IMG/VR virus record: IMGVR_UViG_3300046167_000817
Span: 1 to 62,589 of that record
Reading direction: 5' to 3' (one strand)
Origin: a virus
Lineage: Duplodnaviria; Caudoviricetes
Length of the DNA: 62,589 nt
The notes under the pieces are model-generated. The model made no database searches. It saw only the letters and a program-made list of their open reading frames with translations, and had not been told where the DNA came from. This document shows positions 40,719 to 61,110 of the stretch, one piece after another. The position numbers were made by a program, and so were the translations under genes. Within the stretch, counting starts at the first letter, position 1, and the number at the start of each line of letters is the position of its first letter.

Positions 40719-43700
40719 ATGAAACAATTTAAATACACAGTAAACGGTAGAACTTTTTTACTTCCAGAAAGTGAAGTACAGGGGTTTTTGCAAGAATTTC
40801 CAAATGCTCAGCTTATAGAAGAAATAGACGAAGCTGGGGGAAAGCAAACGGGTGTTCCAAGTCAGGCTGCAAGTGCAACACCAGAAAATGTAGCAGCCGT
40901 TACGGGTTTAGAATCGGGGACTTCTTTATCGGAATCACAAAGACTAGCAGCTCCAATTGCTCAACCTGTTCAAGAAAAAAGTAATATAAACCAATTATTA
41001 CAACAAAAAATTTCTGATGACAATTTAAATATTGAACAGCAAGCTAGTTTACTTTTTAAAATTAAATCACAAGATGAAAATATAGGTTTTGACAAAAGAA
41101 CTCCTGAACAAAAAGCATTAGATTTACAATCAGGCAAAGACCCTTTTGCTGAAAAATTAATGTTAGGTTTATATAAAGAAAATAATTATGATGCTGCTTA
41201 TGAAAATTATGTATCAAATTATGATAAAACTAAAAACATATCAACTAAATATTTAAACAGTACAGGAATAGATCCATTTGCACCTCAAATTGACTCAGCA
41301 GCTGCAACCGCGTTTGCTCAAACAGCGGTTAACAATTCAAAAAATAACTTAGGCTCAAATATTGATTTTGAAGACAATGAAACTTTACAAGGATTAAGGG
41401 AAGAATCTATACAAAGTTTACATGATAATGATAAATATTTACAACAATATTTAATACCTAGTATTATGCAAACAAGCGTAATACCTCAATTAGAAAAACA
41501 AAAAAAGAGTTTAGCTGAAAAATATGGATTAAATGATTTAACAACGTTTACCCCTGAAGCATATGAAGCAGCACAAGTTGAGTTAAACGAAATAGCAACC
41601 GATTTATTTTACGATTCTTTAAATACAAATCCTGAATATACAAAACGTAGACAAGCAATAAATCAAGCTGTAGACAATGAGCTACAAAAAGATTTAACCG
41701 TCCAAAAAAGAAAAGAGCTAGGGTTAGATGAAAAAAACCAATTTGGAGAATCTTTTTTAAAATCTAAGAAAAGCATAGCTAATACTTTTAATGCTTCTAC
41801 AAGGGCGTTAAATGATATGGAATATCAAAAAGATAAAGCAGAGCTAGCGAGGTTAGAAGCGGGGATTGCAGATGGCTCTATAAAACTTACGGATAAAATA
41901 AGATTTGGCGCACCTATGGCAACAAGAACGCAATTAGATAGCGCTAGACTGCCTATAATACAAGAACAAATAACGGTTAAAGAAGCTATTGAAAGATATA
42001 AAGGCCGAAGAAAAGATATTCTAAATGAAAACGCAAAGCTATTTGAGCAATACAAAGCAAGAGAGTATGATTTAAGTTTTTTTAATGATTACATGGATGA
42101 TATAAATGAGGCTGACGGTATGTTACAGGTTGTGGGTGCGTTTCTAAAAAACACTCCAGCTATAATTGCTGAGCAAGCACCTCAGTTAGCTTTAGCATTG
42201 ACAGGTATTGGTGTTTTTGCGCAGGAATTAGGTCCTACATATTTTGAAGGTATAAAAGCTAAAATGGAAACAGATGGTGTAGAAGATACTGAAGAAAACT
42301 TTTTAAAGTATATAGAAGACGGGGCAGGAGACGGAGAGTTAGCAGCGGCTTTTGCAGCATTGAGTCAAGGGCTAGAATCTGTTGGGGCTAGTACGATAGC
42401 AGGGTATTTATTTAAAGATATAGGTAAACAGGGTATTGTATCTTTATTTAAGCTAGGAGCAAAAGAATGGGTTAAAACGGGAGGAGCAAAATCTTTAACT
42501 GGGGGAATGGCAAAAAGCGGGTTTACTGAATTTTTAACAGAAACATTTCAAACCGCAGGTTCACAAATAGCGAAAGGTATTGCCGGAGGTGATGCTACAA
42601 AATATATTGATGCAAAAGAACTTTTTCAAAGTGGTCAAATTGGAGGATATGTAGGGCTTGTTTTACCGTTTGCTGGTAATATTACAAGACAAACAGCAAC
42701 AGATATAAGAGGAGCGGCTGCAAGAATTAATGCTTTAACTGATAAGGATGCTAGTATAAATATATTAGACAAACTTAGAAAAGATATTCAGTTAGATATC
42801 GATAACAATATAATATCGCAAGAGGAAGGCCAGACTAAACTTGCTGCTGTTACAGACGTAATTAATGCTGATCAAAAAATAAGAAAAGAAATAACAGGGG
42901 AGGACAAGGTAAAAGCTGTTGAGCTTCAAGTTGAAAAGCAGCAAATAGAAAACGAAATAAAAAATCTTGATGAAGACGTAGATAAAACTGACTTAGAGTC
43001 GCGTAAAACAGAAATTATAAATGAATTAAACTCCTTGGCTTTAAAAAATATTGGTAAAGTTACAACTGAAGGCGCGAAAAAAATTGCAAAAAGTGAAGGT
43101 ATAGGTTTTCAGGAATTTGAAACAACCACAGATACGCAAAGTTTTATTGAAAAAGAAAAAGCTAAAGGCACACAAATAGAGGTAAGCCAATCTGAAAACT
43201 ACGGGTTTATAATACAAGATAAAAAAACAGGTGAACAAACAATAGTACTAAATAAAGAAACAGCTAAAGAAGATAATGTTGTTACAACGGCTGCACATGA
43301 ATTATTACATGGAGTACTAAAAAACACGTTTACTAGCTCTGAAATACAAACTACTTTAGGCCGTGAATTAGCAATTGAGTTAGGCAACATGGATATTTCT
43401 AATATTGTAGATTCAGAATATGCCAACCGTTTAAATGATTACTTAGCATTAGCTAAAGAAAAAGGAGGAACCGCTCAGCAAATGGGTAATGCGTGGGAAG
43501 AAGGTATAACATTATTAAGTGAGGGCTTATTAACAAATCAAATAAAATACAATGAAACTGTATTTACTAAAATAGGAGATTTTTTACGTCAAGCCCTTTC
43601 TCAATTAGGCGTTAAAGCAAACTTTAATACAGGTAGAGATGTGTTTAATTTTGTAAAAGATTATAACAAAAGCTTAGTAGCAGGTAAGCTTACAGCTGGT

Positions 43701-46700
43701 CAACAAAGAGTTGTAAGGGAAGGAGCCGGCGGGTCTTTAATTCAGTTTGCTCAATCACAAGAAGGTAAACAACAATTAAAAGTAATTCCCGAGCAGGAAA
43801 TTAAAGGGTCTATAAAAGCAAAAGATATTGATCAAGCTTATACAGACGGCAAAAGTCCTTTTGAAATATCAGAATTATATAGAGATTTAGTTGAAGTATT
43901 AGCAACAAAATATGAAAATGTGCCCGGTTATAATACTTTTAAAGAAGACCTAATACAAAATACTTTAACAGAAAAAGGGGGAGCCATAGACCTTATAAAC
44001 GATTTTGATGGTAGAGGTAAGCTATCTGGATGGGTAGGTAGGTTTTTACCTGAAAGAATGAAAAAAGTAGCTAAAGATCTTTTTCCTGATAAATTTGCAG
44101 AAAATGTAGACGCAAGAGTGGATGTTGCAAGCCAAGAAACTTTACAAGAAGAAGTTGAAAGAAAAGAATTAGAAAAAACAGAAATACAAGAAGCTAAAGC
44201 GCAAGAAACAAGAAACGTATTAGACAGGCTAGGTCTTTCTAAAAATTTAAAAGGAGTTGCTCTTGAAGCCGCTACTAAAACATTAAGCACTATACTGCCT
44301 CAAATACAAGAAAAAAAAGGTAAAAACTTTAGAGAAAAATATAAAGTTGACGTAAGAAATTTAATTTATGATGATGTTGAAATGGAATTTAACTCATATA
44401 ACGAAAAACAATACTTTAATAAAATAAATGAAGGACCTACTCAACCAGGAGATAAATCTTATGCAGAAAAAATATATGATATAATACCATTACAAGATTT
44501 AGTAAAGAGTCAGTTTGCAAAACCTTTGTTTACAGATCAAGTATTTGAAGCAGACGGTAAACCAAAAAGAGTAGATGAAAGTTTTACAGGTAAAAAAACA
44601 GGTGCTGGTAATTTTGTATATAATAAAAGACCTTGGTCTGAAGTTAAAAGTATATTTTTAAATGAATTTGGGGAAAAAAATAAAAACTCAACTCAAAGAA
44701 AAAAATTTATTATAAATACTATTGCAAAAGAATTAGCGTTTGACGAGTCAATGCAAGCTTTAAAAAGTGAAAGCGTTCAAGAAAAATTACCATTAACTCA
44801 AGAGGCTGAAATTAAATTGTTTAATGAAGAGTTTGAAAGAAATATTGAAAGAGGTAGGTTTACTAAATATAGCGTACGTGCCGGAAAACATTTACAAAAA
44901 TTTCCTGAAAATCAAAATATATTATTTAATACAATAGGAAAAGCTTTAACAAAGGTAACGCCTTCAAATACTTTTTCAAGTTTATTTATTCCTTTAGCTA
45001 AAGATGCAAACATACCTAACTTATCTATTGAAGATATAATTACAATTGCATCGGAACTAGAAGTTTCAATGGGTTCTAATAAACTTTACAATGAGGACGG
45101 CTTAGGGCAAACATATGAAAACATTTTCGGCCTTGATACAGAAAGAGGACAAAGAATAGGCGCAAACCCACAAGTTAAAGACAACACTTTTACGGAAAGT
45201 GAAAAAGATATTAATTTAGGTTTATTACAAAAACATTATAAAAACTCAGGGCTGGCTTCTACACTAGCTCATGTATCTTTTTCAGATAATAATGGATTGG
45301 GTAGAATGTTAAATATTAAAACTGATAGTTTTCCTGAAATAAAAGAATATTTAAAAGAAAACAACATATTAGACGCAATAAATTCAGCGCCAATAAATTC
45401 TGATATAAATTCAACTTCTGGCGATAAAAAAGCAAAAAGAGTAAGAGAGTATATAAAAAGCGGTATAGTTGAAAAAACAAAAGATTCTGATAGATATGTA
45501 GATCAACTTAATGAAAGAAAAAAAGATATTGAAAAACAAATGTTTAAAGTTGATTTAAACTACAGAAATGAATTAAATAAATTAGAAGAAGGCTCTCCTG
45601 AAAAAAGAGCTTTGTTAGAGGAGTTTCAATCTCATAGAGATTTAATGGCGTTTGTTACAAACTCTTTATATACGGGAGGAGTAGGACAAAATAATTCAAG
45701 GACACATTCAAGAGGAGCAACATATACAGCGGGAGTAGCTTTATACGAAGCAAACGGGGAATACTATTTTGAACATATTCCATCTAATTCTACTAAACAT
45801 AAAAAACAGCCAGAGATATATAAGAAACTTTTAAGTGCTACTACTGAAAGTGAAATAGATAATATTGTTGAAGAAAGTAATAACTCTTTTCAAAAAGAAT
45901 CGACTGGTTTATTTTTAGAAAATAGATGGAAAAGAATTTTTACCGCAAAAGGAAACACTGAAATTCAAGGATCAATATACGGTAATATAAATATAACAAC
46001 TGTTGAAAAAGCTATAACAGCTGCTAAAAAACAAAAAGATCAAAAGTTTTTAAATTGGGTTACAGATGAAAAAGGTAATACTAGAGAAGTAAGTGATCTA
46101 AGAAAAGAGTTAGCTGCAAAAATTAATGCGACAGAAGGGCAGCAACAACGTATAGAAGATTTAAAAGCTAAAGGTGTTGATGTTTCAACAATAGATTATC
46201 AAGCTTACCTTAACGAAAAAGTTGAAGCTGATAAAGCAACTAATGAATCAATTACTGTAAAAAGTTCACTTCGTTCTAAACAAATATCAGACATGATAGA
46301 TGGATTAGACACTCGAGGTAGGGGGAAAAGATCTCAGCAAATTAAATCTGGTAAAAACACAGAAGTAACTGCTAAAAGATTATCTGAAAAAGCCGGGCTA
46401 AACTTTAGAAATAAATGGAATTTATGGCTGCCGTACGAAGCTGAAGATTTTTATGGGTTAATACAAAAAATTGCAAGAAGCGGTAAAGTTGGAGAGCAGG
46501 ATATAGAGTTATTAAAAGAAGAGCTTATAGACCCTTATGTACAGGGTGTTTTAAATATAGATTCTCAAAGAAAAGGCATTACAGACACTTTTGATTTAGC
46601 CTTAAAGCAATTAAAAAATATAAATTCAAACATAAAGCTAAATAAAACGATTAAGCAAGAAAATTTAAACTTGTATACTAATGAAGATGCTGTAAGAATA

Positions 46701-48488
46701 TATTTATGGGACAAGGGGGGATATAAAATATCAGAACTTCAAGATAATGATTTAAGAAATATAAAATCATATATGAATGCAAACCCTGAATTAAAAGAAT
46801 TTGCAGAAAAAATAAATATTTCTTTTGGGAAAGAAGGCTATCCTGCTCCTGAAGCTAATTGGGACTCAGGAAATATAGCAATAGATTCGCGCAACATGTT
46901 AAATAAAACCGCACGCCCTAAATTTTTAAAACCTTGGCTTGCTAATGTAGAAAAACTTTTATCTCCTAAAAATAAAAATAAATTACTAGCAGCATTTGGA
47001 TCAGATTACGTTAAAGAATTAGAAGACACAGTTAAAAGAGCAAAATCTGGAAAAAACAGAATAGAGCAAACAGGTATTGGAGCTAAATATGTTAATGCGG
47101 GAATGGATTATATAAATGATTCTGTTGGAACTATTATGTTCTTTAACTCTCGTTCTGGTATATTACAGATGATTTCATTCACAAACTATATAAACTATAG
47201 TGATAATAATATTGTAGAATATGGTAAAGCTGTAGCAGATACAAAACAATTTGCTGCGGATGTAAAAGAATTGTGGAATTCAGATTTTTTAATAAACAGA
47301 AGAGGAGGTAGTACTTGGAATATACAGGAAGCGGAAATTGTAGAAGCTTTAAATACTGGAGACAATAAAACTAGAAATTTATTTACTTTAATGAGAAGAT
47401 TCCAAAGAAAAACATTACAAGCAGGATTTATACCAACTAAGTTTGCTGATAGTGCGGCTATTGTTTTAGGAGGAGCCCCAATGTATCGTAACCGTATTAA
47501 TTCATATTTAAAACAAGGTATGAGTGAAAAAGAAGCAAAAGAAAAAGCAATGTTAGACTGGAAAAAACTAAGTAATACTTCTCAGCAAGCTTCAGACCCA
47601 TTACGTGTTTCTAATATACAGTCAGGTCCTTTAGGTAGATTTATTTTTGCTTTTAACAATGTGTTATTTCAATATAATAGATTAGCTAAAAGAGAACTTA
47701 CTGATTTAAAGAAAGGTAGAAGAGTTAAAAAAGAAGATGGCACATATATGAATAAAGGTAAAAGTGCTCTTGTAAGAATGAGTAAAGTAAGTTATTATTT
47801 AGTAGCACAAAATGCTGTTTTCCAAGGTTTACAAAGTGGTTTGTTCGCGTTAGCTTTTGCTGGTGAAGACGATGAAGCAAATGAAAAACAAAAAGAAAAA
47901 AGAGAAACCCTTGTTGCTAGACAGCAAATACAAGCCGCAAATGGTATGGTAGATGCTTTACTAAGAGGGTCAGGTCCTATAGGGGCACTACTTTCAATGG
48001 CAAAAAACTACGGGGTAGCAGTGCGAGAGCAAAGAGGTTTAACTAGCGCTTGGCAGAAAAAAGGAGGAACAGAAGAAACTGTATTAGAAGTAACTACTTT
48101 GTCTCCGCCTGTAGATCATAAAATAAGAAAGCTTTCAAACTTTACTTCGTTTGCAACAAAAAACAATACATACGAAACATTTTTATCTCCTTCAGTAGAA
48201 GCTACAGCTGAAGTATTAGCGCTAGGTAATATACCTGCGGATAGACTTTTAAGAAAAGCAGAAAACTTATATAATGCCGCAACAATTGAAACTACTGCTT
48301 TTAATAAAATATTATTAGCGGGTGGTTGGAACGCGTGGAACTTAGGTCTAGAAGGAACTAAGTTTTATGATAAAGAAGGAAACTTTAAAGGCTTTGGCCC
48401 TCATGCAAAAGAAGGCGACGACGAAGGAAGAGTATTAAAAGAAAGAGTATTAAAAGAAAGAGTATTAAAAGAAAGAAAAGTTAAATAG
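40719..48488 (+). CDS. Giant multidomain (polyvalent) ejection protein with zincin HEXXH and sigma-70 region-2-like domain
   Basis: 2589 aa; hydrophobic Gly/Ala-rich stretch at ~aa 470-650; AHELLHG at aa ~860; RDLVEVLATKY...EDLIQ...GAIDLINDFD...KLSGWV from aa ~1054; helical C-terminus. Confidence 0.75.
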   Translation: MKQFKYTVNGRTFLLPESEVQGFLQEFPNAQLIEEIDEAGGKQTGVPSQAASATPENVAAVTGLESGTSLSESQRLAAPIAQPVQEKSNINQLLQQKISDDNLNIEQQASLLFKIKSQDENIGFDKRTPEQKALDLQSGKDPFAEKLMLGLYKENNYDAAYENYVSNYDKTKNISTKYLNSTGIDPFAPQIDSAAATAFAQTAVNNSKNNLGSNIDFEDNETLQGLREESIQSLHDNDKYLQQYLIPSIMQTSVIPQLEKQKKSLAEKYGLNDLTTFTPEAYEAAQVELNEIATDLFYDSLNTNPEYTKRRQAINQAVDNELQKDLTVQKRKELGLDEKNQFGESFLKSKKSIANTFNASTRALNDMEYQKDKAELARLEAGIADGSIKLTDKIRFGAPMATRTQLDSARLPIIQEQITVKEAIERYKGRRKDILNENAKLFEQYKAREYDLSFFNDYMDDINEADGMLQVVGAFLKNTPAIIAEQAPQLALALTGIGVFAQELGPTYFEGIKAKMETDGVEDTEENFLKYIEDGAGDGELAAAFAALSQGLESVGASTIAGYLFKDIGKQGIVSLFKLGAKEWVKTGGAKSLTGGMAKSGFTEFLTETFQTAGSQIAKGIAGGDATKYIDAKELFQSGQIGGYVGLVLPFAGNITRQTATDIRGAAARINALTDKDASINILDKLRKDIQLDIDNNIISQEEGQTKLAAVTDVINADQKIRKEITGEDKVKAVELQVEKQQIENEIKNLDEDVDKTDLESRKTEIINELNSLALKNIGKVTTEGAKKIAKSEGIGFQEFETTTDTQSFIEKEKAKGTQIEVSQSENYGFIIQDKKTGEQTIVLNKETAKEDNVVTTAAHELLHGVLKNTFTSSEIQTTLGRELAIELGNMDISNIVDSEYANRLNDYLALAKEKGGTAQQMGNAWEEGITLLSEGLLTNQIKYNETVFTKIGDFLRQALSQLGVKANFNTGRDVFNFVKDYNKSLVAGKLTAGQQRVVREGAGGSLIQFAQSQEGKQQLKVIPEQEIKGSIKAKDIDQAYTDGKSPFEISELYRDLVEVLATKYENVPGYNTFKEDLIQNTLTEKGGAIDLINDFDGRGKLSGWVGRFLPERMKKVAKDLFPDKFAENVDARVDVASQETLQEEVERKELEKTEIQEAKAQETRNVLDRLGLSKNLKGVALEAATKTLSTILPQIQEKKGKNFREKYKVDVRNLIYDDVEMEFNSYNEKQYFNKINEGPTQPGDKSYAEKIYDIIPLQDLVKSQFAKPLFTDQVFEADGKPKRVDESFTGKKTGAGNFVYNKRPWSEVKSIFLNEFGEKNKNSTQRKKFIINTIAKELAFDESMQALKSESVQEKLPLTQEAEIKLFNEEFERNIERGRFTKYSVRAGKHLQKFPENQNILFNTIGKALTKVTPSNTFSSLFIPLAKDANIPNLSIEDIITIASELEVSMGSNKLYNEDGLGQTYENIFGLDTERGQRIGANPQVKDNTFTESEKDINLGLLQKHYKNSGLASTLAHVSFSDNNGLGRMLNIKTDSFPEIKEYLKENNILDAINSAPINSDINSTSGDKKAKRVREYIKSGIVEKTKDSDRYVDQLNERKKDIEKQMFKVDLNYRNELNKLEEGSPEKRALLEEFQSHRDLMAFVTNSLYTGGVGQNNSRTHSRGATYTAGVALYEANGEYYFEHIPSNSTKHKKQPEIYKKLLSATTESEIDNIVEESNNSFQKESTGLFLENRWKRIFTAKGNTEIQGSIYGNINITTVEKAITAAKKQKDQKFLNWVTDEKGNTREVSDLRKELAAKINATEGQQQRIEDLKAKGVDVSTIDYQAYLNEKVEADKATNESITVKSSLRSKQISDMIDGLDTRGRGKRSQQIKSGKNTEVTAKRLSEKAGLNFRNKWNLWLPYEAEDFYGLIQKIARSGKVGEQDIELLKEELIDPYVQGVLNIDSQRKGITDTFDLALKQLKNINSNIKLNKTIKQENLNLYTNEDAVRIYLWDKGGYKISELQDNDLRNIKSYMNANPELKEFAEKINISFGKEGYPAPEANWDSGNIAIDSRNMLNKTARPKFLKPWLANVEKLLSPKNKNKLLAAFGSDYVKELEDTVKRAKSGKNRIEQTGIGAKYVNAGMDYINDSVGTIMFFNSRSGILQMISFTNYINYSDNNIVEYGKAVADTKQFAADVKELWNSDFLINRRGGSTWNIQEAEIVEALNTGDNKTRNLFTLMRRFQRKTLQAGFIPTKFADSAAIVLGGAPMYRNRINSYLKQGMSEKEAKEKAMLDWKKLSNTSQQASDPLRVSNIQSGPLGRFIFAFNNVLFQYNRLAKRELTDLKKGRRVKKEDGTYMNKGKSALVRMSKVSYYLVAQNAVFQGLQSGLFALAFAGEDDEANEKQKEKRETLVARQQIQAANGMVDALLRGSGPIGALLSMAKNYGVAVREQRGLTSAWQKKGGTEETVLEVTTLSPPVDHKIRKLSNFTSFATKNNTYETFLSPSVEATAEVLALGNIPADRLLRKAENLYNAATIETTAFNKILLAGGWNAWNLGLEGTKFYDKEGNFKGFGPHAKEGDDEGRVLKERVLKERVLKERKVK
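48429..48476 (+). repeat. Perfect 15-bp tandem repeat x3 (AGAGTATTAAAAGAA; RVLKE)
   Basis: Directly visible at the 3' end of the giant gene. Confidence 0.95.
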
Positions 48489-48494
48489 TATACT

Positions 48495-48956
48495 ATGAAC
48501 GACATAAGTAAACATATATCATATAGAGAAGGCGTTTTATCAAATACCGCTACTCGATTAAATATTGACAACATACCAGATAATTACCAGCTAGCAAACA
48601 TGGAGGCTATAGCTTTAAACATATTTGAACCATTAAGAGATTGGGTTCGTGGTCCTGTAAAAATAAATTCATTTTTTAGATCAGTAGATTTAAATACAGC
48701 AATAGGGGGAAGTAGCAGATCACAACACTGCGAAGGAAGAGCAATTGATATTGATGATACATTTGGATATAAAACAAATGCAGAAATGTATAATTATATA
48801 AAAGACAACTTAAATTTTGATCAACTTATATGGGAGTTTGGCAATGATACAAACCCTGATTGGGTGCATATAAGTTATGTTTCAGAGGATCAAAATAGAA
48901 AGCGTTGTTTAAAAGCAGAAAGAAAAGATGGGAAGGCAGTGTATAGCATTATATAA
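48495..48956 (+). CDS. Peptidase M15 family endolysin
   Basis: INSFFRS..LN.AIGGS.RSQH..G.AIDI and WVHISY zinc-binding motifs. Confidence 0.9.
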   Translation: MNDISKHISYREGVLSNTATRLNIDNIPDNYQLANMEAIALNIFEPLRDWVRGPVKINSFFRSVDLNTAIGGSSRSQHCEGRAIDIDDTFGYKTNAEMYNYIKDNLNFDQLIWEFGNDTNPDWVHISYVSEDQNRKRCLKAERKDGKAVYSII

Positions 48957-52714: not shown

Positions 52715-52742
52715 TTATCAATTGGTTTTCGTGTTCAATTCG
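52715..52742 (-). promoter_or_regulatory. Early promoter-like motif copy before thyA
   Basis: TTATCA-attggttt-TCGTGT-tcaat-TCG. Confidence 0.75.
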
Positions 52743-52972
52743 TATTTATTGTAATAATAAACACTTGCTTTATATATTTGTTTTTGTATTTCGCCGGGGC
52801 CATATATATCAGGTGATAAATTTGGTTTTTCTCCTTTTTTATAAGGACCTAAGTTTATACCAACTTTCCACGATTTTCCGTTCTCTACACATACAGGAAA
52901 TATTCTTATATTGTTTTTTACACAATAGTTCCATGCTTTATTTTCAAGACGCGTTGAGCTATAAGTACCCAT
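52718..52972 (-). CDS. Hypothetical protein
   Basis: Part of the 52718-53044 ORF; internal ATG (MGTYSS..) chosen, start uncertain. Confidence 0.6.
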   Translation of the reverse strand: MGTYSSTRLENKAWNYCVKNNIRIFPVCVENGKSWKVGINLGPYKKGEKPNLSPDIYGPGEIQKQIYKASVYYYNKYELNTKTN

Positions 52973-53028
52973 GTTGAATTTTGTTTTGCGGTAAAGTATG
53001 AAGACAGGCACATACAAATATAGTAAAT

Positions 53029-54753
53029 CTATACATTTTCCCAAGGTAAAGGGTTATTCAATTCTGCATCTTCTTCTATATGTGGTATATATGAACCGCT
53101 TTTTGGTTCCCAAGTAAAGAAACATTCAGCACCATTTTCACCTAAATTTTGAAACTTTACTTTTAATACTTTTACTTTTGTTGTTTTATTTTCATAATCT
53201 CTATGTACTAATAACCCATGGTAACTCGCGTCATACCATTCACCTCCACCTTTAATATTGTACATAGTAGGCTCTTCAATTTTACCTGAACTATCTTTAT
53301 ACATTTTTGTTGGGTGTGCAACTATAATTACTAAAACATCATATCGTTTTGCAAACTGTTCAATTTTAGTTAAATATTCTAATGTATAAGTATTAACGTC
53401 CATACTATTAGCATCTACGTCTCTAATTTTATTAAAAGGGTCAATAACTAAACACTTAATACCTTTGCGCTTTACAAGCTCTGCACCTTTTCTTAACACA
53501 GCTTCAAGTGATGGCACTTCAAGATCAATAAAATAATAATTTTCATTTATATGATTTGAGACCTCTTTCCACTTATCGCCATCAATATCTTCATGTGAAG
53601 GCATACCTCCCCATATTTTACGCATAATTTTGTGTGCGTGTAAATATGTGGGCGCGTTTTCAGGTGAAGCAAAACCTATTTTCCAATCATGACCTATGTT
53701 ATATCCAATAACCATTTGGTCAACGAAATCACTTTTACCACTACTCGGTATACCAGTAACAGTAATAAACTGACCAGTGTAAGTGCTGAAGATATTATCA
53801 AAGTTATTAATCCCAATCTGAAATCCCGGCTTAAAACCGTTTTTAACAAAGTCTTGTAAGTCATCTTCTAAGTCTTTAAAGGTTGTAACATTCTCTAAGG
53901 GTACAGGAGAAGCTTTTTCAATTATATTAATTAAAGATGTAGGGTCTTCTAATAATACCTCATTAGCATCTTTGTGTTTATCAAAATCAACTGTATAACA
54001 AACCTCTGAGCCTAATCGTCTTATTAATTCTTGTTTTAAAGCTATACCAGCTGCATCATTGTCAACTGCTATAATAATTTTTTCTTTATCAGCAAAGTAA
54101 TCAATACAATTATCTAAGTAGTCTAAATTATTTGTATTAAGGGTAGCACCGTTTGGAACTGATATTACATTAGGAATACCAGCTTCGTGTATAGCACAAA
54201 CATCCATTTCGCCTTCTACTATAACACACCAATTATAACCTATTATACTATTTATATTATAAAATACTTTTTCTGCTCCTTTATATAATTTAAAGTTTTT
54301 TCTTGCGTCTCTATATTTAATATTAATGAGTTGATCACCTATCATGTAGTTGAACTTGATGGTGTTTTCTTTTTTGCCGGTTTGCGGCATGTACTCTAGT
54401 CCTTCTGAAATACTAAGGTCTTGAACAGTTTTTTTCGATATACCTCTTGATTTAAACCACTGTAAAGCTTTGGTTTCTACTGCTTTATGTGTTTCTGTAT
54501 CATAAGAAGGTCTTGCATATTCTCTATCTGTTCCTCCTTTTCGTTGGTAAGTGTGTAGTTGAAATGTCTTGTTGCAGTTATGGCAAGTGCCTAAACCTCT
54601 TTCCCAATCAAGACTTGCACATTTTTTTTTCTTGTTTTCAGGTTTACGCTGGTGAGAGCAAAGAGGACAAACACTCTCTGCTTTACCAACGGGTAGATTA
54701 TATTGATTGAAATTTTCGACAAAAAAACCATTAACCTCTACCGTATTTAACAT
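53029..54753 (-). CDS. Primase-helicase (T7 gp4/Twinkle-like)
   Basis: Zn finger CPLC...CHNC; TOPRIM IVEGEMD, SVPNGA, DNDAAG, KDANE; helicase GIPSSGKS, LVIDPFN, VAHP. Confidence 0.95.
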   Translation of the reverse strand: MLNTVEVNGFFVENFNQYNLPVGKAESVCPLCSHQRKPENKKKKCASLDWERGLGTCHNCNKTFQLHTYQRKGGTDREYARPSYDTETHKAVETKALQWFKSRGISKKTVQDLSISEGLEYMPQTGKKENTIKFNYMIGDQLINIKYRDARKNFKLYKGAEKVFYNINSIIGYNWCVIVEGEMDVCAIHEAGIPNVISVPNGATLNTNNLDYLDNCIDYFADKEKIIIAVDNDAAGIALKQELIRRLGSEVCYTVDFDKHKDANEVLLEDPTSLINIIEKASPVPLENVTTFKDLEDDLQDFVKNGFKPGFQIGINNFDNIFSTYTGQFITVTGIPSSGKSDFVDQMVIGYNIGHDWKIGFASPENAPTYLHAHKIMRKIWGGMPSHEDIDGDKWKEVSNHINENYYFIDLEVPSLEAVLRKGAELVKRKGIKCLVIDPFNKIRDVDANSMDVNTYTLEYLTKIEQFAKRYDVLVIIVAHPTKMYKDSSGKIEEPTMYNIKGGGEWYDASYHGLLVHRDYENKTTKVKVLKVKFQNLGENGAECFFTWEPKSGSYIPHIEEDAELNNPLPWENV

Positions 54754-54800
54754 AAACTAAATCTAATTATTATGACTAACATAATTGTTTGTCGGTTGTT

Positions 54801-54828
54801 ATATCATTGCTGCTTCGTGTTGAACCCG
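54801..54828 (-). promoter_or_regulatory. Early promoter-like motif copy before primase-helicase
   Basis: ATATCA-ttgctgct-TCGTGT-tgaac-CCG, intergenic. Confidence 0.8.
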
Positions 54829-54830
54829 TA

Positions 54831-55151
54831 TTAAAACGGAAGATCATCATCTGTTGGTGCAGCGGCTGCCTGAGATACAGGCGCGGATTGTGACTGGCCT
54901 TGCTGCTGTGCAGCGGGCATAGCCTCTCCGTCCGTCCAAACGACTTTGATATTACCTAAATAAACTTTAGGTTCTTTCGCTTCTCGTTCTTCTTTCGATT
55001 GGTCTACGGTTACAGAACCGTTATTTCCAAACTGATCCATTTCGTTATTGATTGCAACAACGACTGGAATGTATTTACCTTTTTTACCATTATAGATTTT
55101 ATCCTTTGGTATTTTGGTAACATCTAGGTTTCCTTTTAAAATTCCTGCCAT
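54831..55151 (-). CDS. ssb: Single-stranded DNA-binding protein
   Basis: Q/A/P-rich linker and acidic DDDLPF tail; replication context. Confidence 0.75.
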   Translation of the reverse strand: MAGILKGNLDVTKIPKDKIYNGKKGKYIPVVVAINNEMDQFGNNGSVTVDQSKEEREAKEPKVYLGNIKVVWTDGEAMPAAQQQGQSQSAPVSQAAAAPTDDDLPF

Positions 55152-55152
55152 A

Positions 55153-55884
55153 TTATAATGTTTTGGTTATAAAATATTGGTTAGGGTCAAAGTTCTCTGT
55201 TTCGTAAAACAGTTTATAAGTATCAGCTGCTTCCTTTACTTTACGTTGACCCGATTCGTAAAATTCAGTAGAGCATTCAAAGATACCTGTCTTTAATGTA
55301 TTCTTGTCAATTACTAAAAATAAAAATTCATAACCGAACATAGAGGAGTATATATACGCCTGACTGTCATAGTTATATTTTTTACATCTTGGTTTGAATA
55401 AATTAATATCACTTGTCGTTTTTAAATCAACGATAAGCTTGTCGTCGTGGTTTACAATATCAGCTTTGCATTTCCACCATAAATCCTCTATCTGCATAAT
55501 ATTAGGAACTTCATATTCAATATTCATTCCTGAAATTAATTCACCAAAGTATTTATTCTTTTCTATCTTTTCTACCATGTTCTCAATCTTATCAACTTCA
55601 TGTTGTAATAAACATATTTCACCCTCAGATAATTCTCTATATTTTTTTGTATTCCGCGTGCTCGACTCTATAATTTTAAAATTTTTTAATTTATTAGGTT
55701 CAAGTATTGCGGTATGCACATACCTTCCAATCACGAAATTTACATGATTTGGTGTAGGCTCCCTTAATTTAGTAGGGTCGTTTTGTAATATTTGTATATT
55801 TGAATTACTTAAAAACTCACGGCCAATACCATTATAATATTGGTCGTCGTCTTCAAGCATTTTAAGAATTTTGTGTCTTTGCAT
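55153..55884 (-). CDS. PD-(D/E)xK exonuclease (RecE/Cas4-like)
   Basis: LSNS, G..VH..ILEP, KCKADI...IVDLKTT, Y..QAYIY. Confidence 0.85.
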   Translation of the reverse strand: MQRHKILKMLEDDDQYYNGIGREFLSNSNIQILQNDPTKLREPTPNHVNFVIGRYVHTAILEPNKLKNFKIIESSTRNTKKYRELSEGEICLLQHEVDKIENMVEKIEKNKYFGELISGMNIEYEVPNIMQIEDLWWKCKADIVNHDDKLIVDLKTTSDINLFKPRCKKYNYDSQAYIYSSMFGYEFLFLVIDKNTLKTGIFECSTEFYESGQRKVKEAADTYKLFYETENFDPNQYFITKTL

Positions 55885-56297
55885 TATAGTGTCATTTTAA
55901 CATGATCCGGCGTTGATTGCCTTGGCTTTTTAAAATCATCTGATTCATCTTCACCAAATGCGCCTAGCGCGTAAAATCCTGTTAATTTAAGGGTAATTCT
56001 TGACATAGCCCTCTTTTCAGCCATTGCAAGAACATAACTTTGTCTGCAATTTTTTTCATTAGCTTCACCATAAGTTTCTAGTTTTCTACTATTCCACTCA
56101 GCAGAAGCTTTTACAGCAGCTGAAACACCCGGAGTATATTCTATACAATCAAATGTAATATCAATATCCGCTTGAGCTTGTATCTTATCAATACCTGCTC
56201 TTGTAATTATAGTCCAACCTTGTGGACTCCTAAAAGTATCTTCTTTATCAAGACCATACTTTTTGTATAACTCATTAAGTAATTCACTTTTTGTCAT
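55884..56297 (-). CDS. Rad52/Sak-like single-strand annealing protein
   Basis: YGEA...AMAEKRAMSR..LK..G; paired with exonuclease and SSB. Confidence 0.6.
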   Translation of the reverse strand: MTKSELLNELYKKYGLDKEDTFRSPQGWTIITRAGIDKIQAQADIDITFDCIEYTPGVSAAVKASAEWNSRKLETYGEANEKNCRQSYVLAMAEKRAMSRITLKLTGFYALGAFGEDESDDFKKPRQSTPDHVKMTL

Positions 56298-56304
56298 GCT
56301 TTAT

Positions 56305-56332
56305 ATATCAACTTGTACTCGTGTTCGGCTCG
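56305..56332 (-). promoter_or_regulatory. Early promoter-like motif copy before the recombinase
   Basis: ATATCA-acttgtac-TCGTGT-tcggc-TCG fills the intergenic gap. Confidence 0.8.
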
Positions 56333-56334
56333 TA

Positions 56335-57096
56335 TTAACTTAAATAATCAACGACCTGCTCTGGCTCAACGTTTTTTATTAGTTTGTCGATACCGTCTTT
56401 TTTTATTTGTGATACTCTTACGTAAGATGCTGAACCTTTTATACCCAGCTTTTCTGATATTTCTTTTGCGCTTAGTTTTTCGCAATCTAAACCATAACTC
56501 ATTCGCAGTACGTTGTACTCTGTTTCTGTTAAATATAATCTCATTAACCCCATTAAGTATTGATTTAAAATATTTATGTTGTACGTAGTAGAGTTGTCTG
56601 GAATTTGTAATAAAATATTTGCGTCTGTAGAAGTGTTGACGTCTAGACTTACAAAGATACTGTCGAAAAATACTTTTACCATTTCTTTGTTGCTGCTGTT
56701 CTTCCTGATTTCGTTTAACCTGTGCTCCGGTATCCTCATACTTCCCCTGTTTATATCGATCGCTCTTCTTATTGAACCTTTTATTCTTTTCTTCAAAAAA
56801 CCTTTTACCATAAGTGGTTCTTCTCCCGGTTTCGCTGTCCCATAAACCTTGTCCCAGTCTATTCTGTCTACGGCGTTTATCAAACCTATTGTGCCTTCCT
56901 GTATTAGATCTAGTATCGACATCACTCCCGACGCTTGGTACGTTAGTACAAACTTCCATGCTACCGCTTCGACTAGAGGTCTTGCGCATTCTATTAAATC
57001 TTCTCGTGATGTTTCGGAGTTGCAACATTCTTCAAATAACCTTTCTGTTAACTGTTCTTTGTAACGTATGTAGTTTTTTACACTGTAATGTTTCAT
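56335..57096 (-). CDS. Sigma-70 family RNA polymerase sigma factor
   Basis: Region 2 LVEAVAWKF...LDLIQEGTIGLINAVDR, IRRAI...MRIPEH; region 4 LTETEYNVLRMSYGL...KEISEKLG...RVSQIK. Confidence 0.93.
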   Translation of the reverse strand: MKHYSVKNYIRYKEQLTERLFEECCNSETSREDLIECARPLVEAVAWKFVLTYQASGVMSILDLIQEGTIGLINAVDRIDWDKVYGTAKPGEEPLMVKGFLKKRIKGSIRRAIDINRGSMRIPEHRLNEIRKNSSNKEMVKVFFDSIFVSLDVNTSTDANILLQIPDNSTTYNINILNQYLMGLMRLYLTETEYNVLRMSYGLDCEKLSAKEISEKLGIKGSASYVRVSQIKKDGIDKLIKNVEPEQVVDYLS

Positions 57097-57706
57097 CGTT
57101 TAATCTTTGCTTCTCTTCTTTTAAAGAGCTACTCATATTCCTAAATATGGTGCGGGTGGTTACTTGAAGTTGAGCAGCTAAGGATTTAACTGTGATTTTT
57201 TTACTTACGTCGTGCATGTATAGCATTGCTTCATACATATCGCTTTCACTTGCTTTCTTTCCTCGTCCTAATACTTTACCAACAAGCTTTAGCTTTTCAA
57301 TACGATCAAGTCTACAACTATCTTTAAATATAATTTTCCTTAATCTATTCTTAGGAGGCTTATCCAATTCCTGCAACCACAAACTTTCAACCATGTTTAC
57401 TAATCTGTTCTCGTCTATTACGAATGTAATAAATCCATTTGACTTGTTTGTAATGTGCTTTCCTAATTTTAAAAACATAGCTTTGGTTATGTGATCATTT
57501 AAATACCACAATACTAATAGATGCCACTTCAAAGATTTAAAAGAAGTTATCTTAGCTTTACTTCTAAACAACTCATAACACTCGTGAGTTCCAGTAGTAT
57601 AGAGCTTATAATCTTTCGTTTCTTCATCTGGCATATCAAATATAGGATCGCGCCTATAAACTATTCTGTGTTTATTTAAATAATCAAGGTTTCTTTCGTG
57701 CGACAT
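57032..57706 (-). CDS. DNA-binding protein with C-terminal HTH (candidate replication initiator or regulator)
   Basis: KITVKSLAAQLQVTTRTIFRNM HTH; start codon lies inside the inverted-repeat site. Confidence 0.7.
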   Translation of the reverse strand: MSHERNLDYLNKHRIVYRRDPIFDMPDEETKDYKLYTTGTHECYELFRSKAKITSFKSLKWHLLVLWYLNDHITKAMFLKLGKHITNKSNGFITFVIDENRLVNMVESLWLQELDKPPKNRLRKIIFKDSCRLDRIEKLKLVGKVLGRGKKASESDMYEAMLYMHDVSKKITVKSLAAQLQVTTRTIFRNMSSSLKEEKQRLNDETLQCKKLHTLQRTVNRKVI

Positions 57707-57744
57707 TTGCGTGCTACTATATTAATTATTGTACCTATTGTCAC
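57700..57744. promoter_or_regulatory. 45-bp inverted-repeat site overlapping the HTH gene start
   Basis: GCGACATTTG...GTACCTATTGTCAC. Confidence 0.6.
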
Positions 57745-57974
57745 GTTATTAATATTCTATAATAACGCTGATATTTTCTTAAAAACCACAATTTATTTTT
57801 GATTTCATCAATTATTTCATTCGCGTCAGCATCCGGCATTTTATCCAGATTAAATGTTATACAGCTAATTTCATCATGCAGTTCCCATACGCGAGATCCT
57901 ACATACGCTCTGTGCTTTGCCTTTCGTTTATTGAAAAGCATTGCAACAGGCGAGGGTGTAAAGTTAATCTTCAT
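57741..57974 (-). CDS. Hypothetical protein
   Basis: 77 aa, overlaps the upstream gene. Confidence 0.7.
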   Translation of the reverse strand: MKINFTPSPVAMLFNKRKAKHRAYVGSRVWELHDEISCITFNLDKMPDADANEIIDEIKNKLWFLRKYQRYYRILIT

Positions 57975-58401
57975 TTACTTTAATATTACTTAAGTTTAAC
58001 TTAGCTTTCTTTTCAGCGTCATGACGAGATTCATCACAAGCGTAATCCCATACTTCTTCGCATATATCTTCGGCTGTACCACCGTTATTAAGCTCATCGG
58101 CAAACCATGTATGAATAGCTACTTTGTAGCCCCCTTTAATATCTGACTCTACTTCGTCCCAAAGATCTTGGGGATCATTAGTCATATTACCAATGTAAGT
58201 GCACTTAGACGTATTGTTTGTAGCATAGTGCAAGAGTGTACCATCCATTGTCTCTTCTGTTATATAAATTGCCCAGCCCGTAAGCTTGCCGCTGTATATA
58301 TCATCTGTTACAATTACCTCAGTACCAAAGTAATCTTCAATTGCTTTCACATAATCGTGAGGCGTAGGTAATTCGTGTATTGGTGTATCTGCGTAACTCA
58401 T
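57964..58401 (-). CDS. Acidic hypothetical early protein
   Basis: 145 aa, ATGA coupling. Confidence 0.75.
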   Translation of the reverse strand: MSYADTPIHELPTPHDYVKAIEDYFGTEVIVTDDIYSGKLTGWAIYITEETMDGTLLHYATNNTSKCTYIGNMTNDPQDLWDEVESDIKGGYKVAIHTWFADELNNGGTAEDICEEVWDYACDESRHDAEKKAKLNLSNIKVNED

Positions 58402-58583
58402 AATTCTATTTCAGTTACAGGTTTAAGCGCGTCAGTCTCATTAATGTAATTTAATACATACTTAGCACAATAGTTTTTTTGAAACATATCGAGCTTGTCA
58501 AACTTCTTATCGAAGTGTTTTTCAGCTACTATATTAAGTAGCGCGTCTGTAAGCATACTGCTTGAATTTTTACTTTTTTTCAT
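58398..58583 (-). CDS. Hypothetical early protein
   Basis: 61 aa, first gene after the motif at 58605. Confidence 0.7.
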   Translation of the reverse strand: MKKSKNSSSMLTDALLNIVAEKHFDKKFDKLDMFQKNYCAKYVLNYINETDALKPVTEIEL

Positions 58584-58604
58584 ATTTTACTTTATTTGTA
58601 TATA

Positions 58605-58632
58605 ATATCATTCGGTATCCGTGTTGGGTCCG
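58605..58632 (-). promoter_or_regulatory. Early promoter-like motif copy
   Basis: ATATCA-ttcggtat-CCGTGT-tgggt-CCG, intergenic. Confidence 0.8.
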
Positions 58633-58656
58633 TTAGCATACTATTGTCGTGTGACA

Positions 58657-58830
58657 TTAAAACCTTAAACTACCACCGATTTCAGTGTATAGTGCAATGC
58701 GGTGTGGTATAACTATAGCGTTGTTACACCCTCCACAACATTCTCCTTCTTCCTTAACCGGAAAAGGATTATGGCCTCTACCCTGAAATGAGTGATGGCA
58801 GATAACGCATTCTCGCGTATCATTTTCCAT
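58657..58830 (-). CDS. 57-aa zinc-finger protein (CVIC...GHNPFP...CCGGCN)
   Basis: Not in the ORF track; Cys pattern. Confidence 0.75.
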   Translation of the reverse strand: MENDTRECVICHHSFQGRGHNPFPVKEEGECCGGCNNAIVIPHRIALYTEIGGSLRF

Positions 58831-59125
58831 ACTTATTTTTAAGATAGTGTTCGTAAATAGTTTTGCTAATCTGTACTAGTGAAGTGTAGATTACAGCACG
58901 AATATACTTATTTTGGTGGAACTTATCAAGTAAATCTAACTTTTCGTTAATAAGTGTAGTTTCATCGTGATGTAATTTTGTGTGAATTAGATCAACCAAC
59001 TCATAAATTGTCATAGTATAACCAGCTCTTTCTTCTCTAAAGTACTCGTCTTTAAAAAATTCAGCAGCTATATTGTCGATTTCATCTAACTCGTCTTTAG
59101 TAAACCCAAAGTCTTCTGCTTTCAC
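58820..59125 (-). CDS. Hypothetical early protein
   Basis: 101 aa, GTGA coupling. Confidence 0.7.
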   Translation of the reverse strand: MKAEDFGFTKDELDEIDNIAAEFFKDEYFREERAGYTMTIYELVDLIHTKLHHDETTLINEKLDLLDKFHQNKYIRAVIYTSLVQISKTIYEHYLKNKYGK

Positions 59126-59427
59126 GTGTCTTGGTTTGAGTTATCTATTCTAGGTAATAACCTGTTGTATGTTATGCCGTCACTATCTCTGCCAATGTTG
59201 TAATCAACAGTATAGTTGTCTTTTAAAAATTTACTATAGTCTTCATAGATTTCATTCCACGCATCATCTCCTAATTCTTTTCTAAACTCTAATATATAAC
59301 GGTTATGTTTAGTTAATCCGTCATACGCATAACAAGATTCCATCATGCTCTTAAAAGCGTCTATATTGTTTTCAAAAGCATTAGTAATAAGTTGATTATC
59401 ACGTAAGGGTAATTTATTTTTTTCCAT
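59122..59427 (-). CDS. Hypothetical early protein
   Basis: 101 aa, TAATG coupling. Confidence 0.75.
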   Translation of the reverse strand: MEKNKLPLRDNQLITNAFENNIDAFKSMMESCYAYDGLTKHNRYILEFRKELGDDAWNEIYEDYSKFLKDNYTVDYNIGRDSDGITYNRLLPRIDNSNQDT

Positions 59428-59666
59428 TATATTATTTTTATACTTTGTTTTGTGTGACTGTACGTGTTCTTTATGTTCTTATTATAAAACTTTCCTATAG
59501 AATGACAATTACGCATTCTTTGAAATGTACGTACATGTACTTTCCAATATGAATACATAGTACCGTTTTGAAACAACACTAATAATATTCTTTTTTCTCG
59601 ATCATACGAGACTTGTTTAATTGCTTTACTATCAACTAGTAAAACTTCTTTGCTTACTTTTCTCAT
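59427..59666 (-). CDS. KTSC domain protein
   Basis: VDSKAI..VSYD.....L.V.F.NG..YSY..V......SIGKFYNKNIK; start moved to the ATG at 59666 because upstream sequence is a structured RNA. Confidence 0.85.
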   Translation of the reverse strand: MRKVSKEVLLVDSKAIKQVSYDREKRILLVLFQNGTMYSYWKVHVRTFQRMRNCHSIGKFYNKNIKNTYSHTKQSIKII

Positions 59667-59667
59667 A

Positions 59668-59730
59668 GAAAGTATGAGAGGATTCGAACCTCTCTGCTCA
59701 CAAGCCGGACTGCGAGCCTCCATTTACTTT
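59668..59730 (-). ncRNA. D-arm-less tRNA-like element
   Basis: AAAGTA/TACTTT closing stem, GCTCGCA/TGTGAGC hairpin and canonical T-arm GAGAGG-TTCGAAT-CCTCTC. Confidence 0.6.
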
Positions 59731-59822
59731 GTAACCCACGAGCTAATCATCATTAACTCTAGTTAAATGAAATCTGAATTAAAGGAGTTATTAACCGATC
59801 TTCTTTACATATTTCCATTTAG

Positions 59823-59894
59823 TTGCGACGGGCGGACTCGAACCGCCGACCTCTGGGTTATGAGCCCAGCAAGATACCACTTCTCCACGTCGCT
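59823..59894 (-). tRNA. tRNA-Met(CAT), initiator type
   Basis: Cloverleaf AGCGACG...CTGGG-CTCATAA-CCCAG...GGCGG-TTCGAGT-CCGCC-CGTCGCA-A; 1:72 mismatch and three consecutive G-C pairs in the anticodon stem; CCA not encoded. Confidence 0.93.
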
Positions 59895-59995
59895 ATATTA
59901 TTAGAGTAAAGGGTGAATCTGGCATTACCTTTTTATATCACCGTTTTGCTTCATGCCGCCAGACATTTACTCATTATGAAATCACTACATATATA

Positions 59996-60023
59996 ATATC
60001 ATTCATCTTTCGTGTCGGGTTCG
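59996..60023 (-). promoter_or_regulatory. Early promoter-like motif copy driving the RNA cassette
   Basis: ATATCA-ttcatctt-TCGTGT-cgggt-TCG. Confidence 0.8.
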
Positions 60024-60229
60024 TTTGCGTAGCCACCCAACTTAAACTTATAACTTAAGTCATCAGCAATGGAGTGTATAGCACTTACTACCGCATCCTG
60101 TATTAAGTCATGTATTCTACCGTCTAAATAACCATCAGGTTTCCACGCATCCGTGTTATGATTTTCTAAAGTGTCAATTACTTTTTTCATTGCCTCTTTA
60201 ATATCCATATCTATTAACTCTCTATCCAT
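59999..60229 (-). CDS. Hypothetical early protein
   Basis: 76 aa. Confidence 0.7.
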   Translation of the reverse strand: MDRELIDMDIKEAMKKVIDTLENHNTDAWKPDGYLDGRIHDLIQDAVVSAIHSIADDLSYKFKLGGYANEPDTKDE

Positions 60230-60590
60230 CTTTATTAAGGTTTAATTTACTTTTTATTATTGTTTCAATATCAACGCCATACAAAGCGCCCTCTAAAGCT
60301 AAGTAAGCTGCTTGGCTTACACTATTAGCTCTTTGCCCTGTCATGGGGTCATCAGCAAACACGTCATAACTTAACTCGTCTATAATTTTTTTACAGTCAG
60401 ATGTGTATATTACTTGTGTTTCACAATACTGATGTATGTACTCACTTATATAATGGTCTTCAAATTCGTAGTCATTACTCATTAACTCCCAATTTATATC
60501 AGTAACGATCGTATCAATACAATCTTCTTGGTAGTCTTTAGCGGCTTGTTCTGCTTCAGATAGCCACTCACTTATATTATTGCTTGTCAT
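60222..60590 (-). CDS. Highly acidic early protein (Ocr/DNA-mimic-like composition)
   Basis: 122 aa, D/E-rich; IHQYCE..VIYT...II...AAY.ALE recalls the Ocr-like helical pattern. Confidence 0.5.
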   Translation of the reverse strand: MTSNNISEWLSEAEQAAKDYQEDCIDTIVTDINWELMSNDYEFEDHYISEYIHQYCETQVIYTSDCKKIIDELSYDVFADDPMTGQRANSVSQAAYLALEGALYGVDIETIIKSKLNLNKDG

Positions 60591-60738
60591 ATTAATCTAA
60601 TTTTGTCCAGTATGTAAATTTATTCATTCTTTTAACTTCACTTTTGAGCTCTTGAATTATTTCAATTAATTCAGTTGAGTCAAGTATTTTTAATTGCTTT
60701 TTTAGTTGGATAATGTTTCATATTAATCATTTACTTTT

Positions 60739-60766
60739 ATATCAATACTCAATCGTGTCAGCTTCG
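60739..60766 (-). promoter_or_regulatory. Early promoter-like motif copy
   Basis: ATATCA-atactcaa-TCGTGT-cagct-TCG. Confidence 0.75.
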
Positions 60767-61021: not shown

Positions 61022-61110
61022 AATTTTCACTTTCTTGCCATTGGCCACAATCAGCGCAATAACTGTCCATTATTAATTGGTTATATGTTACTTCTTCACT
61101 ATTACAATAT

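Follow-up and report, generated by a model that had tools for sequence, protein, structure and literature searches.

Phages are known to begin early transcription either from promoters that the host holoenzyme recognizes or with a virion-borne RNA polymerase (RNAP), as in N4, crAss-like, and phiKZ-like phages. T4 gp55 is a phage factor that comprises sigma domain 2 only; it is a free protein of 185 amino acids, recognizes a single -10-like element, and needs gp33 and the sliding clamp. phiEco32 gp36 also works with a single promoter element. The DNA analyzed here (the window) is the whole of IMG/VR virus record IMGVR_UViG_3300046167_000817, 62,589 bases, in which an initial annotation had placed a sigma-70 region-2-like domain inside a giant ejection protein and had proposed that the virion delivers this domain, that it redirects the host core RNAP to an early promoter motif, and that a free sigma factor then drives later genes. 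That reading is partly supported: the giant protein very probably contains a highly diverged sigma domain 2 fold, and two positions of this domain co-vary with one base of the early motif, which favors a role in promoter reading.

In the crAss-like phage phi14:2, which has a flavobacterial host, gp66 is translocated with the DNA and transcribes the early genes (10.1101/2020.03.07.982082), and N4-like RNAPs have been described as fused to zincin-like peptidases (PMC5512222). The window protein shares with phi14:2 gp66 and the N4 virion RNAP its giant size and its location among podovirus virion genes; unlike them, it has no conserved DxDxD motif and would borrow the host core enzyme. Like the polyvalent proteins, it is of giant size, has several domains, and contains an invariant HExxH; for that group, processing by zincin-like metallopeptidases and "jump-start transcription" are stated themes (Iyer et al. 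2017, PMC5512222). The word "sigma" has 0 occurrences in the main text of that source, whose supplementary domain tables could list such a domain. phiEco32 gp36 and SU10 gp32 are promoter-specificity subunits used with a single motif near the start site (PMC4281155) and, unlike the window domain, are products of free-standing middle genes. The one sigma peptide of SU10 came from a preparation that also contained DNA polymerase and other non-structural proteins and does not count as evidence of packaging (PMC4281155). Our literature search found no description of a sigma domain that forms part of a virion protein or an ejection protein.

Results

A module resembling sigma-70 domain 2 in the giant protein

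The giant open reading frame (ORF; P0001, 2589 amino acids, 40719-48488, plus strand) closes the series of large genes in the structural arm. The domain had initially been assigned to positions 43800-44870, which encode residues 1028-1384 and contain YRDLVEVLATKY...EDLIQ...GAIDLINDFDGRGKLSGWVGRFLPERM. Within this span the sigma-like part, delimited by fold and profile searches, covers residues ~1033-1126 (fragment residues 6-99; 43815-44096, plus strand), and the remainder is an acidic linker followed by a second domain. Domain 2 alone was detected, not a whole sigma factor. The string that had been aligned by eye with the phage's own sigma factor is there, but the pairwise match is at chance level (BLASTP of the fragment against that factor, E 1.4, 17/52 identities). 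Neither the whole protein nor the fragment had a match in Pfam (E ≤10), PHROGs, or NCBIfam, and searches of the PDB with phmmer and with the close-family profile A2 returned none. A further profile (A3) was built from 22 sequences that are 15-56% identical to the window and were drawn from 131 instances of the domain. Against 177,635 PDB sequences it gave six matches at E ≤10, of which the top two were sigma factors, namely the N-domain of SigE (8b3z_A, E 0.0037) and sigma-K (8vjl_B, E 0.13), both matched over regions 2.2-2.3. When a diverse-family profile of the domain was compared with the free-sigma family by hhalign, a P of 0.0015 was obtained; with all 131 domain and 112 sigma sequences, P was 0.0007 over 77 columns corresponding to sigma residues 29-113, compared with 0.064 over 14 columns for the reversed control. 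The hidden Markov model (HMM) of the domain, applied to five related genomes, returned free sigma ORFs as next-best matches in three (E 0.004-0.08). These are records G026, G029, and G043 (loci L179-L194; G numbers denote related IMG/VR phage records and L numbers loci in them), in which the next-best matches among ORFs of at least 150 amino acids were to region 2 of the free sigma.

The alignments differ in register. The diverse-family alignments place window residue Q1080 on the D of the DLIQ in sigma, so that an anchor equating DLIQ with DLIQ, as in the by-eye alignment, is 3 residues off, and the close-family alignment A2 preserves the DLIQ register with a 6-residue gap. On the basis of the diverse-family registers, the signal does not reside in the literal motif. 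In what we take to be the sigma-70 numbering, the equivalents of G408, G411, F427, and Y430 are kept in the domain. These profile comparisons point to a likeness with sigma domain 2 independently of the fold evidence.

Residues 1028-1390 were modeled with AlphaFold without templates from an 8-sequence alignment (predicted local distance difference test, pLDDT, 70.8). A domain-only, template-free AlphaFold2 model based on the 22 sequences of A3 reached a pLDDT of 84.4 and a predicted template modeling score of 0.73, with residues 10-95 above a pLDDT of 90. In a VIA fold search of 48,161 PDB chains with the first model, ranks 1-20 were all sigma entries (Z 6.5-8.0), aligned over 74-97 residues that always lay within model residues ~1-105; they included pro-sigma-K, ShbA, sigma-32, the T4 late complex, RpoS, SigW, and sigma-28, as well as SigB, SigE, BldN, AlgU, SigR, sigma-70, and others. 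The domain-only model again had sigma entries at all of ranks 1-20 (Z 6.2-8.3), and the two VIA searches together gave root mean square deviations of 2.4-5.7 over 72-99 aligned residues. Foldseek with the domain-only model listed sigma entries at ranks 1-9 (E ≥1.7). The case for a sigma domain 2 fold comes from the uniformity with which sigma entries fill these lists, not from single scores. The fold lists and the PDB profile thus agree on the type of domain initially proposed, and we conclude that residues ~1033-1126 very probably form a highly diverged domain 2 of the sigma-70 family.

The nearest entries for domain 2 (regions 1.2 and 2.1-2.4; PF04542) belong to the group 3 and extracytoplasmic function sigma factors, namely 8b3z (SigE), 8vjl (pro-sigma-K), 9m84 (ShbA), 8hkc (sigma-32), 5h6x (RpoS), and 5wuq (SigW). 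Also among the best fold matches was chain F of the T4 late complex (7d7c and 7d7d; Z 7.4-8.0, 87-98 residues aligned), which we take to be gp55. The window domain is embedded in a giant protein of the structural arm, unlike gp55, which is free and is made during infection.

Predicted docking of the module on the RNAP clamp helices

A complex prediction with the beta-prime clamp helices, a check proposed along with the initial annotation, was carried out for the domain and residues 1-420 of Flavobacterium johnsoniae beta-prime. The interaction prediction score from aligned errors (ipSAE) was 0.80-0.81 in three runs, with at least 86% of the contacts in agreement and a partner pLDDT of at least 77, and the best of three control scores was 0.01; among solved complexes, 58 of 80 attained the mark used for docking, as did 2 of 110 mismatched pairs. 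The predicted interface joins domain residues 42-59, the helix equivalent to region 2.2, to beta-prime residues 280-319. This is the textbook contact between sigma domain 2 and the clamp helices, so the pass, obtained in silico, may be a memory of solved holoenzymes. On these models we consider it fairly probable that the domain docks on RNAP. The module has in common with sigma domain 2 a helical fold of ~75-100 residues, a region 2.2-2.3 profile, and a predicted clamp-helix surface; it is unlike sigma factors in that it falls below every curated threshold, sits mid-chain in a late protein of 2589 amino acids, and has no detectable sigma-3 or sigma-4.

The early-arm motif and the free sigma factor

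The minus-strand (early) arm, at 48.9-62.6 kb plus 1-0.7 kb, encodes a primase-helicase, ThyA, MazG, a PDDEXK protein, a helix-turn-helix (HTH) protein, and a sigma-70-family factor. It carries a motif, AYACGR-N8-TGATA, in 10 exact and two one-mismatch copies, all on the minus strand. With up to one mismatch allowed, the window had 22 matches compared with 3.3 expected, and 0 of 100 shuffles reached 22. The fuller form across the 12 copies is ..ACGR-N7-AYACGR-N8-TGATAWWA. The copies lie at 49-67 and 62486-62504 (each with one mismatch and in the terminal repeat), 561-579 (ACACGA-N8-TGATA), 673-691, 52716-52734, 54802-54820, 56306-56324, 58606-58624, 59997-60015, 60740-60758, 61655-61673, and 62311-62329. 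As had been noted initially, the free sigma gene is itself downstream of a copy: 58606-58624 precedes an operon with the HTH gene and the sigma gene. The next exact copy, 56306-56324, lies just downstream of the sigma gene, and a one-mismatch match at 56186-56204 is also past that gene. In most copies at 52716-62504 (minus strand), a further ACGR stands ~11 bases, one helical turn, upstream of ACGA, making a direct repeat ACGR-N7-ACGA-N9-GATA; the outer ACGR would fall near -35 if GATA starts at -12. Promoters of the Bacteroidota type (TTG-N17-21-TAnnTTTG) were not enriched in the early arm, with 7 per strand, and by-eye inspection of the intergenic stretches revealed no promoter motif in the late arm.

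The free factor (P0002, 253 amino acids, 56335-57096, minus strand) has regions 2 and 4 by Pfam (24.8 and 26 bits, respectively) and NCBIfam (TIGR02937, 48.2 bits versus a cutoff of 42.9). Judged by these matches, it is a true member of the sigma-70 family. Its metagenomic family yielded 7786 relatives.

Two domain positions co-vary with the base 5' of GATA

The base immediately 5' of GATA in the motif is T in the window and in G001, G003, G022, G041, and G049, G in 25 records, and A or C in nine. We compared the domain columns of 20 G-type records that have a canonical domain with those of the six T-type records, which make up three lineages (26 records in all). Eleven columns were invariant among the G-type records. 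Position 60 (G1087 in the window; codon 43977-43979, plus strand) is R in 20/20 G-type records and G or Y in 6/6 T-type records, and position 89, in the helix equivalent to region 2.4 (K1116; codon 44064-44066, plus strand), is E in 20/20 and K, A, G, or T in 6/6, respectively. The invariant columns that changed were 60 and 89 only in G022, the same two only in G041 and G049, and 60, 88, and 89 in the window group, so that two columns changed in all three T lineages compared with 0.10 expected. In the free sigma, compared over these 26 records, none of the 38 invariant columns and none of the 80 columns with 90% conservation changed in all three lineages. By our own arithmetic, p for the co-variation is ~0.001 if columns 60 and 89 are independent and ~0.02 if they are one unit. 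Position 89 lies one residue past the equivalent of T440, by the profile register and the same presumed numbering, where the -12-reading helix has its upstream end.

Further records were consistent with this pattern. G072, typed as T before its residues were read (3 copies), has G and A at positions 60 and 89. For the next four records the residues were read first and the base was typed later: G012, G014, and G015, which have R and E, carry 5, 3, and 7 copies ending in GGATAATA, respectively, and G040, with R at 60 and G at 89, carries 4 copies of TTGATAATA. The C- or A-type records G021, G051, G060, G064, and G055 are without the R/E combination, in weak alignments. All 80 of the main-subfamily loci retrieved have R/E; 16 of these were typed, comprising 12 of the G type, three of the G type with an alternative upstream half, and one untypable. 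G004, whose early arm is cut by the contig end, and G045, which has two copies only (both GGATA), were untypable.

The upstream half of the motif in G012, G014, and G015 (L232-L234) is ACAAACAAA in place of AYACGA; the AYACGA half is replaced by (T)TACAAACAAAA at a longer spacing and the GGATAATA half is kept. The two motif halves thus evolve independently of each other, and each is probably recognized by a different part or factor.

The co-variation favors a promoter-reading role of the domain over that of a mere RNAP anchor, without proving it. The apparent link between domain and motif that these alignments suggest is new and is the most interesting point of the analysis.

Co-occurrence of domain, free sigma, and motif in IMG/VR records

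Among IMG/VR stretches, 213 matched one subfamily of the domain and 423 matched the companion sigma. The free sigma was present in 16/16 long records with the domain, and the domain was detectable (E ≤0.001) in 16/32 near-complete records that bear the sigma. A generalized motif, AYACGA-N9-GATA, was found in 31/32 near-complete records, with strand bias and with controls near zero; at least three copies on one strand were present in 14/16 domain-positive and 13/16 domain-negative records. One record, G026 (70,691 bases), has 23 copies on one strand, ~3 times the usual number; in 19 of these copies GATA is preceded by A or C.

Five domain-negative records were taken whole, and all five encode an orthologous giant protein (E 1e-161 to 1e-232). 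Weak matches to the profile were found in the central region of G038 (E 8e-8) and G047 (E 3e-4); G026 matched in the second domain only, G029 gave E 0.002, and a copy was seen in G043 by eye only. At least three of the five retain weak traces of the module at the corresponding position. The idea that presence of the motif follows the sigma rather than the domain was dropped, as the domain-negative records are mostly diverged orthologues and represent failures of sensitivity. Because the absence of the domain is mostly divergence, co-occurrence cannot decide which factor reads the motif. It had been argued initially that, with the free sigma gene itself behind a motif copy, the first transcription needs a factor already present. 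This bootstrapping argument is weak alone, given that the motif and the free sigma are in 31 of the 32 records and the domain is undetectable in 16; the co-variation of R60 and E89, absent from the free sigma, ties the domain to the motif better.

Layout of the giant protein and its genomic setting

The module is followed by the acidic linker (residues ~1127-1164, 44097-44210, plus strand), for which the pLDDT was 27-46 over model residues 97-137, and by the second conserved domain (residues ~1165-1385, 44211-44873, plus strand), which was delimited by conservation and by the model and consists of helices and a small beta-sheet. VIA matches for the second domain were heterogeneous with no consistent known fold, and the ESM Atlas gave no usable match. 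An HExxH motif (H860, E861, and H864; 43296-43310, plus strand) lies 170 residues upstream of the module and is invariant in 18 homologues. It had no match in Pfam, the LPD and MPTase models included, and no PDB profile match; it is the candidate motif of a zincin-like peptidase, by which the giant protein could be cleaved into fragments. The conserved C-terminal region (residues ~1860-2540, 46296-48338, plus strand) is shared with giant orthologues whose central module is undetectable. The C-terminus itself (residues ~2570-2589, 48426-48485) is a tandem RVLKE repeat, RVLKERVLKERVLKERKVK.

Seventeen homologues of the central region are 41-82% identical to the window there. The best conserved parts of the protein are the span initially reported and the C-terminal third (55-64% identity per 50-residue bin), as against 8-30% per bin for the N-terminal 1000 residues. 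When 1.84 billion proteins were searched with the central profile (E ≤0.001), 187 representative clusters were obtained, nearly all of them proteins of 1000-3000 amino acids matched mid-chain, and many of the distant matches cover only the first ~120 positions. No clear case of a free-standing module was found among the 187 clusters, in which the short matches look like contig fragments.

The initial annotation had found no catalytic DxDxD of an RNAP in the protein, and this holds: the sole such string, DEDVD at residue 751, lies in a poorly conserved coiled coil. An identity as a virion RNAP was ruled out on this ground, and no polymerase family or fold was matched in Pfam or by a whole-protein profile against the PDB, where rows were at chance level only. 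A membrane-channel role is unsupported, with no segment reaching a Kyte-Doolittle value of 1.4 over 19 residues.

The window looks like a complete phage record; it has a short terminal repeat and a G+C content of ~33%. Its plus-strand (late or structural) arm encodes the terminase, portal, virion proteins, and lysins. The genes ahead of the giant ORF have virion-protein and lysin-like PHROG matches, and an endolysin gene (48495-48956) follows it directly. The portal is 41-50% identical to podovirus portals of Flavobacterium, Cellulophaga, Maribacter, and Tenacibaculum phages. With P0030 as the query, tblastn against 50,697 deposited phage records gave a sole match, weak and N-terminal, in Maribacter phage Panino.

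Discussion

We propose that the domain would use its region-2.2-equivalent helix to dock onto the clamp helices of beta-prime in the host core RNAP and, as the co-variation suggests, would read the GATA-type, -10-like half of AYACGA-N8-[T/G/A/C]GATA, with positions 60 and 89 tuned to the base 5' of GATA (R/E in most records and G1087/K1116 here). The giant protein would be packed in the capsid and ejected with the DNA; its own HExxH peptidase might release the module from it. The gene belongs to the late arm, yet the motif precedes early genes, including that of the free sigma, and capsid packing followed by ejection is the simplest route between the two. The parts of this proposal carry different weight. 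Packaging and ejection, for which gene position and the analogy with the N4 virion RNAP and crAss-like gp66 are the basis, seem to us evenly balanced. That the domain reads the motif has, on the alignments, slightly less than an even chance, and the whole chain from fold through docking and motif reading to delivery is somewhat less likely than not. The full statement, in which an injected factor of domain 2 only programs the host core RNAP to GATA promoters at DNA entry, an Arg/Glu pair sets the base, and the free sigma follows, is rather unlikely to hold in every part.

A number of observations weigh against this proposal, and some of them suit other explanations. The thresholds of the curated sigma models (PF04542 and TIGR02937) were unmet, with PF04542 matched by 1 of the 22 diverse members, at E 0.19, and Z values of 6-8 and Foldseek E ≥1.7 are weak taken singly. 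Z values below 8 can reflect common helical arrangements, as would be expected if the module were a helical bundle, derived from sigma-2 or similar to it, that has been exapted for structure or ejection and has no link to transcription, the co-variation being a by-product of lineage divergence. The predicted interface is likewise not preferentially conserved (2.37 bits versus 2.52 for the rest of the domain, p 0.75), and the giant proteins of the two nearest records by portal, MW202828.1 and Maribacter phage Panino, are without the domain. These two records also lack the free sigma and the early-arm motif, however, and general divergence predicts neither the change of the same 2 of 11 invariant columns in G022 and in G041/G049 nor lists in which 20/20 top fold entries for two models, and the top sequence matches as well, are sigma factors. 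We regard such a bundle as quite improbable. No homologue of the giant protein or of the free sigma was found by tblastn in the 50,697 deposited phage records, and the giant protein has no counterpart there in an isolated phage with a virion proteome; together with the thousands of metagenomic sigma relatives, this makes it appear likely that the phages form a large uncultured group. The docking score shows likeness rather than binding and may owe something to solved holoenzymes, and the beta-prime partner was a F. johnsoniae stand-in that may not be that of the host. The co-variation itself involves approximately three clean independent lineages and was found post hoc, and R60 and E89 may be a single structural pair. 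The T/G label requires three changes on the domain tree and three on the sigma tree, with T in three groups, so that tree shape alone does not discriminate between them. G-type motifs are also found without a detectable domain in G028, G042, G043, and G044, and the diverged copy in G043 seems to be without both R60 and E89.

Other points would suit a module that anchors the protein to RNAP without reading promoters, the free sigma alone reading the motif. The sigma-2 fold and predicted clamp-helix interface would serve this purpose equally, and such an anchor could displace the host primary sigma (shut-off), hold RNAP at the site of DNA entry, or bring the peptidase to RNAP. No sigma-4 was seen: Pfam gave no region 4 match, hhalign of residues 1028-1390 with the free-sigma family aligned region 2 only, and nothing was detected in the giant protein that could read the upstream half of the motif. 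The position equivalent to the melting residue W433 is K or R. The motif (31/32) and the sigma (16/16) are near-universal and the domain is beyond detection in 16/32. The free sigma is 100% identical in G001 (L004/L099) and 95% identical in G003 (L006/L100), where identity in the giant protein's central module is 58% and 42%, respectively, and the motif is unchanged; this difference between the early and structural arms suggests mosaicism or very different evolutionary rates. Transcription drives genome internalization in T7, and the right-end early promoters of the window point inward, as transcription-driven entry needs. An anchor gives no account, however, of why exactly positions 60 and 89 differ in every T lineage as well as in the remaining non-G records, with no such column in the sigma. 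The clamp helices are highly conserved, so there is no obvious reason to expect a module that only docks on them to diverge fast; on balance we think an anchor unlikely. The module could instead act late in the infected cell, in shut-off of early promoters or in competition with the free sigma, and not be delivered by the virion. The gene is in the late arm, delivery is surmised from gene position and analogy, and co-variation with the motif would suit any factor that touches it, whatever the timing. Against such late action, the module is mid-chain in proteins of 2000-3000 amino acids in nearly all 187 clusters, with no clear free form, and the gene follows tail or ejection-type genes, as do those of internal virion proteins; we consider it improbable.

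If a module is delivered as proposed, phages would have a third strategy for early transcription, in which a sigma-like domain makes use of the host core enzyme. This would explain how a phage starts up when its early arm has only phage-specific motifs, including one that precedes its own sigma gene, and the route would be widespread in an extensive group of marine phages without cultured members. With 187 clusters, 213 domain stretches, and 423 sigma stretches, the family is large, and the collection searched contains no cultured representative of it. That R60/E89 co-vary with GGATA versus TGATA makes the link between domain and motif testable, concretely and cheaply, even without a cultured host.

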